Assembly (NCBI GenBank): GCA_041659005.1
Contig: JBAZZD010000002.1
Span: forward strand, 25,817 to 89,816
Direction: 5' to 3'
From: Minisyncoccota bacterium
Lineage (GTDB): Bacteria > Patescibacteriota > Minisyncoccia > UBA6257 > GWB1-50-10
DNA length: 64,000 nt
Shown here: piece after piece, positions 441 through 59,510 of the stretch
Layout: each line of letters begins with the position of its first letter
Position numbering within the stretch: the first letter of the stretch is position 1
Program-made: the position numbers and the translations under genes
Notes under the pieces: generated by a model
Told to the model about the DNA's origin: nothing
The model's database searches: none
What the model saw: the letters and a program-made list of their open reading frames with translations, nothing else

Positions 441-516
441 AATTTCGAATGACGAATTTCTAATTTTGAATGAAAGGGAGAAAAAAATTTTAAATTACAA
501 ATTTTGAATTTCAAAT
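441..516. repeat. AT-rich dispersed repeat pair (AATTTCGAATGACGAATTTCTAATTTTGAAT + AAATTACAAATTTTGAATTTCAAAT)
   Basis: First motif at 441-471 matches 53833 and 58842; second at 493-516 matches the 31-mer family at 58729. Confidence 0.65.
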
Positions 517-534
517 AAAAAAGAGGGGAAAATT

Positions 535-999
535 ATGAAACAGCCGAAGAATGATTCTAAATATATTTGGACTACGCATGCGTGGGAAAAAATGCAACAG
601 TATGGAATTTCAGAACAGCGAGTAAAACGCATTGTTCGGTTTCCAAAAAGGACGGAGGAAGGAGTCCTTGATGGTGCGGTTGCGGTAATGTCTCCATGCG
701 GGAGATCCGCTGTAGGAAGACAACCATCGCATACAAGTGAGATGTGGGTGATGTATGTTCTTTTTGATGGAAATCAAAAAGGAATTTCGCCTGCCTGCGC
801 AGGCAGGAATGACGAAATTCGAAATCCTAAACAAGAAAAAGAGAAGAAGAATGAGAGGCCACTTGATAATATACAATCCTTTTTAGGAAATACAGGGAAG
901 AGATTTAAAATTATTACGGTGTGGCGTTATCCTGGAGTAAGTCCGGTGCGAGATGCAATTCCTGATGACGTTTTGTCTGAAATTAGAGCATTATTATAA
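535..999 (+). CDS. hypothetical protein, DUF4258-like N-terminus; reading frame passes through a dispersed repeat (782-826)
   Basis: N-terminal YIWTTHAWEKMQQYGISEQRVKRIV resembles the DUF4258 H..ERM..RGI motif. The ORF contains the GC palindrome plus AT-repeat halves. An intrinsic terminator follows. Confidence 0.4.
   Translation: MKQPKNDSKYIWTTHAWEKMQQYGISEQRVKRIVRFPKRTEEGVLDGAVAVMSPCGRSAVGRQPSHTSEMWVMYVLFDGNQKGISPACAGRNDEIRNPKQEKEKKNERPLDNIQSFLGNTGKRFKIITVWRYPGVSPVRDAIPDDVLSEIRALL
782..826. repeat. composite repeat inside ORF 535..999: GAATTTCG + CCTGCCTGCGCAGGCAGG + AATGACGAAATTCGAAAT
   Basis: The 18-bp perfect palindrome (790-807) sits exactly between the two halves of the AATTTCG|AATGACGAA motif seen intact at 441, 53833 and 58842. 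Confidence 0.65.
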
Positions 1000-23464: not shown

Positions 23465-23548
23465 GCGCGGGTGGCGAAATTGGTAGACGCACTACCTTGA
23501 GGTGGTAGCGCTCGCAAGGGCTTGCAGGTTCAAATCCTGTCCCGCGCA
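23465..23548 (+). tRNA. tRNA-Leu (anticodon GAG), CCA not encoded
   Basis: Acceptor gcgcggg/cccgcgc, D-arm with GG, anticodon loop ttGAGgt, long variable arm, T-arm ggttcaaatcc. Confidence 0.85.
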
Positions 23549-23558
23549 CTAATAAAAT

Positions 23559-23586: not shown

Positions 23587-23711
23587 GCGGATAGAATTTG
23601 AACGAGGGGTGGGTCGCCCCGCAATGCGGGGCGTGGTTAGCTATTCGAAACCGCAAGGTGTCAGAAAATTTCGTCCGCGAAATTTTGTTCAATTCCCTGT
23701 CCCGCGCACAA
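23587..23711 (+). other. tRNA-like element or pseudo-tRNA with inverted T-arm/acceptor-like ends
   Basis: 3' end tgttcaattccctgtcccgcgca copies the tRNA-Leu 3' end; 5' end gcggatagaatttgaacg is its approximate reverse complement; no valid cloverleaf. Confidence 0.4.
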
Positions 23712-23900: not shown

Positions 23901-23917
23901 ATCATGCGAGAGGCAAA

Positions 23918-23950
23918 TCCCCGCCTATCGGCAGGCAGGCCGTCCTGCGC
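23918..23950. repeat. variant copy of the GC-rich palindromic repeat
   Basis: ccccgcctatcggcaggcagg is a near reverse complement of the 59492 copy cctgcctgccgtaggcagg. Confidence 0.5.
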
Positions 23951-24008
23951 ACTAAAACGCGAAAAGAAAGAATTTTCTTCCCCCTTTTTTTCGTTGTATA
24001 ATAAAAAA

Positions 24009-24794
24009 ATGAATTTTTTCAGCGAGGGTTTTATATCAAAAAGATCTAAGCCTTTAATTTCAAGTGAATCAATAAATTCTTTGAAATCAGAACATCTGAA
24101 AGAGGGTGTAAGTCCGATTATTGCTTGTATAGAAACTCCCAATCAAGCTTTTAATGATCATAATATAAAAGATTTTTTAAAAAATAGCACAAAACTTACT
24201 GATGTGGATTATTTTGGTGATTCCATTGAGCAAAAAGTGCGTGGATTTAAAAATATGGGAGATGGTTCATTTGTTATATCACCGATAGACAGTTCGGATA
24301 AATTTTCTCAAAAATTTCTCGATTGCACCGGATTAGTAGTAGCCGGTCAAAAAAAAGAAACAAAAGAAAATATATCACTATTAAGTCATCAAAATCCCGC
24401 TCATTTTTTAAATGAAGAATTTTGGAAAACAAATTTTAAAAATGACCTTAGACAACAATTGCAAGAATTAAAGAAAAAAAGTGTGGATAAAACTGTTGAT
24501 GTGGTAATTGTTGGTGGAAATCATTTTTTAAATGGCGAGTATAGCAATAGCAAAGAATATAGAGATAATTATCTTGATTCAATCAAACAATTATCTGAGG
24601 TGGTTGTCGAAGTTTTCAATTTTGAACCCGTTGTTATTACAGGACCAAAAACAGTTCGAGGAAGGCAAACTGATGACGTATATTATGATAATGAACATAG
24701 GAGATTATATATAGTGCGCAAGGACATTGGTGATACAACTACCGAAAGTTTTCTTCCTCGTGATATAGAGAAGCAAGAAAAAAAATGGAAATGA
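24009..24794 (+). CDS. hypothetical protein
   Basis: Track ORF 23904..24794; likely start is the in-frame ATG at 24009 (MNFFSEG), downstream of the repeat and tRNA-like elements. Confidence 0.5.
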   Translation: MNFFSEGFISKRSKPLISSESINSLKSEHLKEGVSPIIACIETPNQAFNDHNIKDFLKNSTKLTDVDYFGDSIEQKVRGFKNMGDGSFVISPIDSSDKFSQKFLDCTGLVVAGQKKETKENISLLSHQNPAHFLNEEFWKTNFKNDLRQQLQELKKKSVDKTVDVVIVGGNHFLNGEYSNSKEYRDNYLDSIKQLSEVVVEVFNFEPVVITGPKTVRGRQTDDVYYDNEHRRLYIVRKDIGDTTTESFLPRDIEKQEKKWK

Positions 24795-34244: not shown

Positions 34245-34276
34245 AAATAAAAATTTCCCCGCGATATGCGGGGATT
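34245..34276 (-). terminator. intrinsic terminator
   Basis: tccccgc-gatat-gcgggga flanked by A/T runs. Confidence 0.55.
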
Positions 34277-34612
34277 TTAATCAAGAAGGTTAAGTGCGAC
34301 AGCGATAATTGCCCATGCTTCTTTTTCTTCAATTTTTAATTTTTCTTGAAGTTTGTTGGCAAGAGAGATATAGAGAAAATCTCTATATTGAGATTGAAGA
34401 ACTTGAAGATTTGGACTATTTATCAGCGTTTCAACAGAAATATTATTATGTTTTGCCACAAGACTATTAATATCCGTCTGGTTACTTGAAAGCTTATCAT
34501 CAAGATCTTTTTCTATTTCTTTGAACGTCTCTTCCATTTTTTTGTCTGGAACCTTTTTTGAAACAGAAACAAGAGCTTCGATTAATGCAAATTTTGAATA
34601 TTGGAGTTTCAT
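34277..34612 (-). CDS. hypothetical protein
   Basis: 111-aa ORF bounded by a terminator. Confidence 0.45.
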   Translation of the reverse strand: MKLQYSKFALIEALVSVSKKVPDKKMEETFKEIEKDLDDKLSSNQTDINSLVAKHNNISVETLINSPNLQVLQSQYRDFLYISLANKLQEKLKIEEKEAWAIIAVALNLLD

Positions 34613-34984
34613 TTTTTCTCCTTTTTAATTGTGAAAGAATAAAACAACAATATCGCTTTTGGGCGGTATTAGCAAGGTTTACTCCAAAATTCCTATTTTT
34701 ATATGAAATCTTCATACAATATAAATTCAACTCAAAAAGGAAATGAAAAAAATAATCCACAGCAAACTCAACGCCTTGGGCGCCTCAAACAGTGCTGCGG
34801 ATTATATTTTCAAGTTTCCCTTTTTCGTGAATTTATTTATTGTATTCCGACGTACGTATAAAAACAGGAATTCTTTCGTCTGGGCGTATATTGCGAACTC
34901 AGCACCCGAGGTGCTTCAAACAACGCTATAGATTATGTTTTTTTTAATCTTCTTCTCTTCACAATTTATACAGCGCACTCCAAA

Positions 34985-35002
34985 CCTGCCTGCGCAGGCA
35001 GG
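34985..35002. repeat. GC-rich perfect palindrome CCTGCCTGCGCAGGCAGG (dispersed repeat copy)
   Basis: Identical 18-mer to 790-807. Confidence 0.7.
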
Positions 35003-35042
35003 CGTATGCATAAAAGAGTGATTTTTTTGTCTAGGTGTTTTA

Positions 35043-35438
35043 TTACCAGTTGAGTACGGTCACGGTAACTTGAAGAATGGTTGCGAAATAGACCCATGCA
35101 AGATATGGGAAGTTTACTATCGCTACCCAACGAGCTCGTGGCCAAATTACTTTCATTGCCCACACGAGAGTTCCAAGGACTAAAAGGATATCAATAGTGG
35201 CAAGGATATTACTTTTTAATCCAAATTGAATTGGGGTGAATGCAATATTAAAAATCGCATTCAAAAAAAATGGCAAAAATATTCCTGTCGCATATTGTTT
35301 CTTTGTATATTTTATTAATACATATCCAAATGAAACAATGATGATAAGATACAATACCATCCACACTGGACCAAAAATCCACGCGGGCGGAGCCCATGAT
35401 GGTTTTAACAATTCACTATAGTATGCATAGTTTTCCAT
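35043..35438 (-). CDS. tspO: tryptophan-rich sensory protein TspO/MBR
   Basis: LKPSWAPPAWIFGPVWMVLY motif; five TM helices. Confidence 0.85.
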   Translation of the reverse strand: MENYAYYSELLKPSWAPPAWIFGPVWMVLYLIIIVSFGYVLIKYTKKQYATGIFLPFFLNAIFNIAFTPIQFGLKSNILATIDILLVLGTLVWAMKVIWPRARWVAIVNFPYLAWVYFATILQVTVTVLNW

Positions 35439-53086: not shown

Positions 53087-53824
53087 ATGAACAAAACAGC
53101 GGTTATTGTTGCTATTGTAGCGCTTATGGCTGCTCTAGGACTTACGGGATATAAGATCGTGAAAGACACTGGCGCGCCAGTCCCTTATGCGGTTGATACG
53201 GATTTGCAGATGGTTTCCAATGTTATTGATGGGGACACGTTCACAATTTTAGATGGCCCCAAAATTAGACTTATTGGTATTGATGCTCCAGACGAAAAAG
53301 AGTGTTATTTTGCGAGTTCAACGGAATATCTTAAATCGCTAATTGAAAACAAGAAAATAAAACTTGAAAAAGATATTTCAGGAACGGATGAGTATGGACG
53401 ATTGCTTCGATATGCTATATTCCCCAATCCTGATGTAACAGAAGACAGTATCTTGATAAACGAAAGAATGGTTCGTGAGGGATATGCGGTGCGACAACAG
53501 GAATCGCCCGACAATCGATATCGTGATTTATTTGCAACTGCCGAGGCAGAAGCAAAGAAACTTGGAAAAGGACTTTGGAGTGCGTGCAAGGCTGCATCAA
53601 CAACTCCGGCAAATGAGGAACGAGAAATTGATCTTGGTCCCCCATTTCCTGAATGTATAGTAAAGGGAAATATTTCAGAAAAAGGATATGGAAAAACCTA
53701 CTTAGTTCCTGGGTGTGACAATTACGAAAAGACAAAAATTGATGAGCGGAAAGGAGAGCAGTATTTTTGTTTTGAAGACGATGCCATTGAGGCGGGATTT
53801 AGGAAGGCAGAGAATTGTCCATAA
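53087..53824 (+). CDS. thermonuclease (SNase-like) with Cys-containing C-terminal extension
   Basis: VIDGDTF...RLIGIDAPE...GRLLRY; extra C-terminal domain with four Cys. Confidence 0.8.
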   Translation: MNKTAVIVAIVALMAALGLTGYKIVKDTGAPVPYAVDTDLQMVSNVIDGDTFTILDGPKIRLIGIDAPDEKECYFASSTEYLKSLIENKKIKLEKDISGTDEYGRLLRYAIFPNPDVTEDSILINERMVREGYAVRQQESPDNRYRDLFATAEAEAKKLGKGLWSACKAASTTPANEEREIDLGPPFPECIVKGNISEKGYGKTYLVPGCDNYEKTKIDERKGEQYFCFEDDAIEAGFRKAENCP

Positions 53825-53832
53825 GGACAGTT

Positions 53833-53864
53833 AATTTCGAATGATGAATTTTGAATTTCTAATT
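53833..53864. repeat. AT-rich dispersed repeat copy (AATTTCGAATGATGAATTTTGAATTTCTAATT)
   Basis: Matches 441-471 and 58842-58870. Confidence 0.65.
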
Positions 53865-53964
53865 AAAAAGATATGCATCCAAATAAGAACAGGAATTGCA
53901 GATGCAATAGTTGCTGTTTGTGACCAATTTTCAAAAAATTGAAAATAAAACCCCCATTTGGGGG

Positions 53965-58681: not shown

Positions 58682-58728
58682 AGATGAATCATGACATTAT
58701 ATAGAACTGACAACAAGATACAGAGAAA

Positions 58729-58913
58729 AATTTCAATTTATAATTTACAAATTTCAAATGAGAGAATGAAGAGAAAGGAGAATTTCAATTTATAATTTAC
58801 AAATTTCAAATAAACGAGAATTAAAGAGTTTGGAATAAAATAATTTCGAATGACGAATTTTGAATTTTCTGCCCAAGGCAGATCAGTCTAAGGCTGACAA
58901 TTTATAATTTACA
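58729..58913. repeat. tandem and dispersed AT-rich repeat array (2.5 copies of the 31-mer AATTTCAATTTATAATTTACAAATTTCAAAT plus one AATTTCGAATGACGAATTTTGAATT copy)
   Basis: 31-mers at 58729-58759 and 58781-58811 (period 52), partial at 58888-58913; AT-motif copy at 58842-58870; hairpin ctgcc-caag-gcag at 58863-58875. Confidence 0.7.
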
Positions 58914-59012
58914 AATCTCAAATGGTGAAATTCATTTTTTTTAAAATAAATGGAGAAAATATAAAAAAGATAAACCCTTCGACAAGCTCAGGGTATTTTT
59001 GTTAGCAAAAAT

Positions 59013-59040: not shown

Positions 59041-59388
59041 TTAAGACAGAGGTTCGATATCACACCAAAACGGACTTACTGAAAGTCGATCGCCAGTTTT
59101 TAGAATTTTAAAAACTACCCACCAATGTTGTTCATGTTCCCATTTATAAATCTCATCGATATAACAAGAACCGAATCCGAGGAATTCACACTCCCCGATC
59201 AAGAACGGATCAAGAATTTTAACATTGTATTTTTTTCCAATATCTTGTGCGAAAAGATTCGTCGCGCTCCCATTTGAACATCCGCTAACATGCTTAAAAT
59301 TCGAAATTGGAGTTGTAAGGGTCGCACTGTGACCAAATTCTCTTATTTCTCCGAATAAATTATATAAGTAGAGTTTTTCCTTAGGCAT
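59041..59388 (-). CDS. hypothetical protein
   Basis: 115-aa ORF with a terminator. Confidence 0.45.
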   Translation of the reverse strand: MPKEKLYLYNLFGEIREFGHSATLTTPISNFKHVSGCSNGSATNLFAQDIGKKYNVKILDPFLIGECEFLGFGSCYIDEIYKWEHEQHWWVVFKILKTGDRLSVSPFWCDIEPLS

Positions 59389-59471: not shown

Positions 59472-59510
59472 CCCCGCCAAAAGCGGGTCAGCCTGCCTGC
59501 CGTAGGCAGG
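59472..59510. repeat. GC-rich palindromic repeat variant (CCTGCCTGCCGTAGGCAGG) with adjacent cccgcc-aaaa-gcggg hairpin
   Basis: Same CCTGCC...GGCAGG arms as the 790 and 34985 copies. Confidence 0.55.

Follow-up and report, generated by a model that had tools for sequence, protein, structure and literature searches.

In Neurospora mitochondria, PstI palindromes of 18 nt (CCCTGCAGTACTGCAGGG) were reportedly described by Yin et al. in 1981. The GC clusters of yeast mitochondria have conserved stems and variable loops, are prone to merging, have been transferred between species and are mobilized by a mechanism that is unknown (PMC4478555). In bacteria, the RPEs of Rickettsia, whose genome is reduced and AT-rich, are palindromic repeats that occur in frame in housekeeping genes unrelated to one another, adding a peptide at tolerated positions (PMC10969869). 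REPs are extragenic, carry a GTAG/CGTC tag, number hundreds per genome, are species-specific and often form REPIN pairs beside a RAYT gene (PMC3733652, PMC3116915).

Here we analyse a family of GC-rich palindromes in a 64,000-nucleotide stretch of a Minisyncoccota genome (hereafter the window). The genomes of Patescibacteria are tiny and streamlined and are generally considered to hold few classical mobile elements. The palindromes form a real, strongly non-random family, and the best reading of the evidence is that it is an extremely small variant of the mobile-palindrome kind that is widespread in Patescibacteria. From its features, the element appears to work most like the yeast mitochondrial GC clusters and the Neurospora PstI palindromes. 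It shares with both (GC42 and GC18 among the yeast clusters) the scattering of short GC-rich palindromes through an AT-rich genome, and with the GC clusters also stems that are more conserved than centers, nesting or merging with other repeats, and presence or absence among close relatives (PMC4478555). Unlike the GC clusters, the palindrome is bacterial rather than organellar, is identical across phylum-level lineages and lies mostly in open reading frames (ORFs), whereas the clusters are only occasionally intragenic; the short direct repeats (AG/ACT) that flank the clusters are lacking at those filled and empty sites of the palindrome that are resolved at the DNA level. In-frame entry into genes is shared with the RPEs, but these are approximately 100–150 bp long, encode 30–50 amino acids and are restricted to Rickettsia, in contrast to the 18–21 bp and 6–7 amino acids of the present palindrome, which is found in many Patescibacteria lineages. 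A search of the accessible literature for the sequence, the LPAQAG peptide that it encodes and palindromic repeats of the CPR found no description.

Palindromes in the Window

Two exact copies of the 18-mer CCTGCCTGCGCAGGCAGG (form A) are present in the window (table 1), as a reading made from the sequence alone had stated; the GC content of the window is 30–40%, and 100 dinucleotide-preserving shuffles of it gave no match to the 18-mer with three or fewer mismatches. The pattern CCTGCC-N2-12-GGCAGG recovered one additional copy, at 59492, also noted in the sequence-only reading. It corresponds to a sister 20-mer, form B (CCTGCCTGCCGGYAGGCAGG, written CCTGCCTGCCGGTAGGCAGG), lacking one G. A second B copy, CCCGCCTATCGGCAGGCAGG, had been placed at 23918 and is real, although its position should be 23920–23939 on the minus strand. 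The window therefore has four copies, two exact ones of A and two decayed ones of B, a density of approximately one per 16 kb. Form B follows the general pattern CCTGCCTGCCGG(T/C)AGGCAGG, is exact in L151 and L102 (L numbers label the genome loci compared here) and has variants in a dozen other low-GC loci, none of which had been fetched for B.

The sequence-only reading was right in its central point, that GC-rich palindromes of one family are dispersed through an AT-rich genome. Their number greatly exceeds chance expectation both in the window and across genomes, where the wider pattern search that the reading proposed found many more copies. It had also counted a hairpin at 58863 as a degenerate member; the hairpin exists but is part of a different element (see below). 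All copies except that at 790 had been called intergenic, which holds for 34985 and 59492. The copy at 23920 overlaps a mechanically listed ORF (23904–24794), falling within its first 105 nt; this copy is probably noncoding because it lies upstream of the in-frame ATG at 24009 and inside a tRNA-Leu 3'-end-like fragment.

Table 1. Palindrome copies, uninterrupted counterparts and the host gene in the window
Feature	Position	Strand	Remarks
A-type palindrome, exact 18-mer	790..807		In frame (PACAGR) in ORF 535–999; splits an AATTTCG/AATGACGAA unit
A-type palindrome, exact 18-mer	34985..35002		Intergenic, 40 nt past the TspO stop (35043–35438, minus strand)
B-type palindrome, one G deleted, CCTGCCTGCCGTAGGCAGG	59492..59510	+	Intergenic, just past the gene for CDP-alcohol phosphatidyltransferase and its canonical terminator
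B-type palindrome, 2 substitutions	23920..23939	-	Within tRNA-Leu 3'-end-like fragment, caaatcc^...^cgtcctgcgcac
Paralogous empty unit ACGCCCAGACGAAAGAATTCCTGTTTTTATACGTACG^TCGGAATACAAT	34826..34886	-	Flanks match the filled unit in L151
Hairpin-pair element CTGCCCAAGGCAG-ATCAGTCTAAGGCTGA, non-member, empty target	58868..58897	+	Filled by form B in L124/L125 and L206
Uninterrupted AATTTCGAATGACGAATTT unit	441..459	+	Corresponds to insertion sites 1 and 2 in the empty state
Uninterrupted AATTTCGAATGACGAATTT unit	58842..58860	+	Empty counterpart
DUF4258-like gene	535..999	+	Middle segment is a hotspot of palindrome insertions

Structure of the Element

The arms CCTGCCTGC and GCAGGCAGG are common to A (18-mer) and B (20–21-mer), and the two forms differ in the center. 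Centers of GC, CGT, CGGT, CGGC, CAGCG and CGTCG were seen between constant arms, giving palindromes of 18, 19, 20 or 21 nt, and this combination of conserved arms and variable center is that of the mobile yeast mitochondrial GC clusters (PMC4478555). A single strand is predicted to fold into a hairpin of 7–8 bp (-11 to -12 kcal/mol as RNA and -6.5 to -7 kcal/mol as DNA). The 18-mer amounts to six codons and contains no stop codon in any frame.

Flanking sequences were compared for approximately 97 low-GC copies among the matches listed. They are unrelated between copies, and the sole signal is that purines predominate at position -1 beside each arm (79% over all copies, 75% over the noncoding ones), so the element consists of the palindrome alone. 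In 732 kb of low-GC loci only three copies with one mismatch were found, and none with two or three. The apparent invariance of the 18-mer is partly a matter of ascertainment since the scan sought exact copies, and the B copies, which were not ascertained by the scan, are more variable than A.

Distribution across Lineages

A scan for the exact 18-mer, using one genome per species, matched at least 119 genome stretches. Approximately 70 among the matches listed are titled as Patescibacteria and have GC contents of 32–50%. Based on record titles, the carriers include WWE3, Microgenomates, Woese-, Gottesman-, Beckwith- and Shapirobacteria, Dojkabacteria, Saccharibacteria, Paceibacteria/Parcubacteria, Kaiser-, Uhr- and Magasanikbacteria, and others. 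Several Bacteroidota are also among the matches listed, with at least seven stretches originating from a single Sphingobacteriales MAG, and two matches listed are from cultured isolates, Litoribacter ruber and Rosettibacter primus. The remaining matches listed are mostly from high-GC genomes, where a chance coding match is possible. In DNA of approximately 36% GC, the base composition gives a chance of about 4e-13 per site for the 18-mer; the low-GC matches therefore cannot be due to chance. Viral contigs contributed 25 matches, nearly all high-GC and chance-like, and gave no sign of a phage vector.

The 18-mer is nested inside other repeats in both Bacteroidota and CPR. In the Sphingobacteriales MAG it is a module within a longer intergenic repeat found in both orientations around housekeeping genes (L033 3380–3620 and 5600–5840; L012, L071, L077, L082 and L101). 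The two copies in L033 are 2.2 kb apart, with housekeeping genes and no transposase between them. A second perfect GC-rich palindrome, TCCGCCAGCTGGCGGA, is common to four loci of different genomes (L066, L111 and two others), which suggests that several such palindrome families exist.

Filled and Empty Sites

Where filled and empty sites could be resolved at the DNA level, the boundaries are exact: the palindrome enters DNA as a precise block of 18–21 bp, without target-site duplication and with a purine preferred outside each arm. Its targets are spacers, other small repeats, tRNA-derived fragments and protein-coding genes. Copies are gained and lost among close relatives, the pattern of filled sites varying between genomes whose proteins are 75–90% identical, which indicates turnover, and they recur at particular sites.

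The conserved DUF4258-like gene at 535–999 lies in a conserved synteny (PBP, this gene, YchF), and its product matches a protein of a Candidatus Paceibacterota MAG at 100% identity. In the window the 18-mer is inserted between TTTCG and AATGA (site 1), and the orthologue in L122 is empty (GGAATTTCGAATGACGAATTTCGAAATCC). L121 has CCTGTCTGCGCAGGCAGG, with one mismatch, at site 1 and a 21-nt relative of B at site 2 (GACGAA/TTTCG); L123 and L124 have site 2 alone filled. The window and L121 differ by another indel in this gene, GRSAVGRQPSHTS versus GK, so by this marker the two lineages with a filled site 1 are not each other's nearest relatives. The indel may itself be a decayed palindrome. Across the family (ORF 535–999 and its homologues P0002–P0021) the middle segment is hypervariable and made up of repeat units and palindromes. 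An AT-rich spacer repeat family (AATTTCGAATGACGAATTT and AATTTCAATTTATAATTTACAAATTTCAAAT) occurs in the window at 429–524, 53821–53871 and 58717–58924, and the same unit encodes ISNDEF within the variable middle segment of the protein family.

Downstream of TspO, following a shared ATGCATACG, the window holds A and L151 holds the 20-mer B, the two TspO proteins being 90% identical. A paralogous unit reads ...TACG^TCGGAATAC... in both the window and L151, with nothing inserted. The surrounding region (34613–35042, minus strand) comprises two paralogous units of approximately 130 nt with the motif TTGARGC-hairpin-GAGTTY (34919–34895 and 34788–34764). This motif is kept in L151 (2180–2350) with compensatory stem changes (GCACC/GGTGC versus GCGCC/GGCGC, and in the outer stem CAGCA/TGCTG versus CTGTG/CACAG), and may be a small structured RNA; it has no match in Rfam. 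A search of 34560–35080 at permissive E-values returned chance-level hits only, including CRISPR-DR28 (E = 2.5), and the whole window at the gathering threshold yielded two tRNAs only; the palindrome itself matches no Rfam family.

Another small repeat has also served as a target. A hairpin-pair element (CYGCCCAAGRCRG-ATCAGYCTWAGRCTGA) stands empty in the window, but its counterparts in L124/L125 and L206 have a B-type 20-mer exactly between the two hairpins; the hairpin at about 58863–58882 (TCTGCCCAAGGCAGA) is the first half of this element. A further small GC hairpin, CCCTTCGACAAGCTCAGGG, is located in the same repeat-rich spacer at 58973–58996.

Parts of tRNA genes are interrupted as well. 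Five Parcubacteria-type genomes carry the 18-mer between nucleotides 10 and 11 of a tRNA-Gln-like 5' part adjoining an intact tRNA-Gln (L027 1724–2105, L109, L037 3529–4013, L042 360–487 and L038 6740–6914). The interrupted tRNA-Gln of L038 is full-length and in tandem with the intact gene, the two bodies being 100% identical. The small ORFs that separate fragment from intact gene resemble GIY-YIG in L027 and L109 (MWYVYILKS...) and HNH in L037. In the window, the copy at 23920 splits a tRNA-Leu fragment at a position where the real gene reads ttcaaatcc/tgtcccgcgcac without interruption. The tRNA-Leu gene (23465–23549) is followed by two 3'-end-like fragments, ending at 23710 and 23953, with a terminator-like hairpin after each; these fragments may be remnants of integration or duplication, or tRNA-like 3' ends of small RNAs.

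The copy at 59492 is missing from the relative L206; no orthologous empty site could be defined for it, the region being rearranged in relatives. In L207/L209 a HisRS gene directly follows the CDP-alcohol phosphatidyltransferase gene, whereas in the window that gene is followed by a 115-aa ORF without known family (59041–59388), a repeat-rich spacer and Dus, which indicates local rearrangement.

Palindromes within Coding Regions

A simple gene call on the low-GC loci placed 53 of the 83 classifiable copies among the matches listed inside genes, and 77 copies among the matches listed lie in stop-free ORFs of at least 150 amino acids. The sequence-only reading had proposed a test for association with gene ends; such an association was not seen, the copies in tandem spacers being nearer the 3' end of a gene in 7 cases and nearer the 5' end in 11, and most copies being intragenic. 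Intergenic copies among the matches listed occupy convergent spacers (9) more often than divergent ones (3), which is consistent with avoidance of promoters.

Reading frames are strongly biased: among the matches listed in low-GC loci, 41 copies are read as LPAQAG, 11 as PACAGR and 3 as CLRRQ (chi-square p = 3e-10). The purine preference at -1 would, if anything, favor the least-used frame, so we infer that the frame bias derives from selection on the peptide. In all five proteins tested (Mn-SOD, UvrD/PcrA, DnaG, DHFR and GlyRS), solved homologues have a gap of 6–9 residues exactly at LPAQAG. The hallmark of RPEs, in-frame insertion at tolerated positions of protein-coding genes, is thereby found here as well.

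Alternative Explanations

The main rival, which we consider unlikely, is that the host selects the palindrome as the DNA target of a conserved dimeric protein, as with parS, Noc-binding or matS sites. Such sites are exact palindromes of low copy number and may be intragenic, and a perfect 18-bp palindrome of low density that is identical across lineages, tolerated in genes and accompanied by few decayed copies would suit such a role. Against it, positions turn over among close relatives, the center and length vary, copies are block insertions that enter even pseudo-tRNA fragments and other repeats, and we know of no candidate protein. A function in protein binding or as an RNA hairpin, both raised in the sequence-only reading, is conceivable, but would leave unexplained why copies insert cleanly in coding loops, in tRNA fragments and in other repeats. 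An RNA-level element, with a stable hairpin acting in termination, 3'-end protection or processing, is improbable on further grounds. The predicted stability of the RNA hairpin, the location of two window copies shortly downstream of stop codons and the excess of convergent spacers point in its direction, but most copies are in ORFs in a preferred reading frame, tandem spacers show no 3'-end preference, and exact identity across lineages exceeds what a purely structural constraint would need. An intrinsic terminator in particular was rejected, as the palindromes are not followed by a T-run, were not flagged by promoter or terminator scans and have neighboring genes with canonical terminators of their own (59548–59529 and 34256–34274). 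DNA-uptake sequences are known to show reading-frame bias in coding regions. A signal of this type would accumulate in Patescibacteria that are naturally competent, through uptake bias together with recombination; conservation across lineages and the frame bias of the palindrome would agree with such a signal, which could spread through flanking homology. Known uptake sequences occur, however, at approximately one per kb and arise by substitution, in contrast to the sparse block insertions seen here, and the palindrome is also present in Bacteroidota; we consider this explanation very improbable.

The resemblance to REPs suggested in the sequence-only reading proved superficial. Both are small, GC-rich, dispersed and apparently non-autonomous hairpins without target duplication, as expected of single-strand HUH transposition, but the flanks of the approximately 97 low-GC copies contain neither a GTAG/CGTC tag nor a target tetranucleotide, the copies are singlets rather than inverted doublets, mostly intragenic and as few as four in 64 kb, and the sequence is common to many classes and phyla instead of being species-specific. 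A tblastn search with an approximate IS200 TnpA query, a weak test, found no Y1 transposase in 1.3 Mb comprising the window and fragmentary loci. There is little likelihood that the palindrome is a true REP or REPIN moved by a RAYT-type Y1 transposase. With DDE-derived MITEs the family shares terminal inverted repeats, the lack of coding capacity and an occasional intragenic location; MITEs are, however, 50–500 bp long, with target-site duplications and a recognizable parent IS. A DDE-type MITE was rejected because we found no target-site duplication and no parent element with matching terminal repeats. Likewise rejected was a transposon with the arms as its terminal repeats: in 777 kb there was no longer element bounded by the arms, all solo half-sites were decayed palindromes, and the pair in L033 encloses housekeeping genes. 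A chance match, compositional effect or assembly or adapter artefact can practically be dismissed. Some matches in high-GC genomes and viral contigs do look like chance coding matches, but no copy is expected in the window by chance, independent NCBI, JGI, ENA and Logan assemblies show the same sites with mutated variants, and the reading-frame bias implies selection in living genomes. To our knowledge, no adapter carries the 18-mer.

A Proposed Trans-Mobilized Palindrome

Clean block insertion and the identity of the 18-mer across distant Patescibacteria indicate that the palindrome behaves like a tiny mobile element and not like a terminator or REP. On balance we lean towards the explanation that it is an ultra-short palindromic insertion module mobilized in trans, distinct from REPs. 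Such a non-autonomous module would be copied by a structure- or sequence-specific enzyme recognizing the arms, which most plausibly would act on the hairpin or cruciform form. Selection would then purge harmful copies; those that persist would be intergenic or, inside genes, would be in frame and located in surface loops, mostly read as L-P-A-Q-A-G, a mild frame.

Sites have been filled recurrently, at nucleotides 10/11 of tRNA-Gln in five genomes, at site 1 in two lineages and in the TspO unit with A or B. Recurrent filling may reflect target specificity; it may also reflect recombination or conversion between copies, or function, rather than fresh transposition. The low copy number (four in 64 kb) and the few decayed copies would also fit a selectively kept sequence. 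A bolder proposal, which is possible but which we hold only tentatively, is that the 18-bp palindrome alone makes up an entire mobile unit, which would be the smallest known. A putative conserved enzyme specific for hairpins or cruciforms and shared across Patescibacteria would insert it without duplicating the target; the unit would be exchanged with Bacteroidota, would continually seed six-residue LPAQAG loops in essential proteins and would mark tRNA-gene duplications. We know of no precedent for an 18-bp element as a complete transposable unit.

The palindrome explains odd six-residue insertions and spurious small ORFs in CPR annotations (the PACAGR, LPAQAG and CLRRQ peptides), and annotation should avoid labelling GC hairpins of this kind as terminators or REPs. 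If the interpretation as a pan-lineage module is true, it would represent a previously unreported source of indels in essential proteins of Patescibacteria; it would also mark gene flow between lineages that are very distant from one another and offer a way to find a new DNA-insertion activity.
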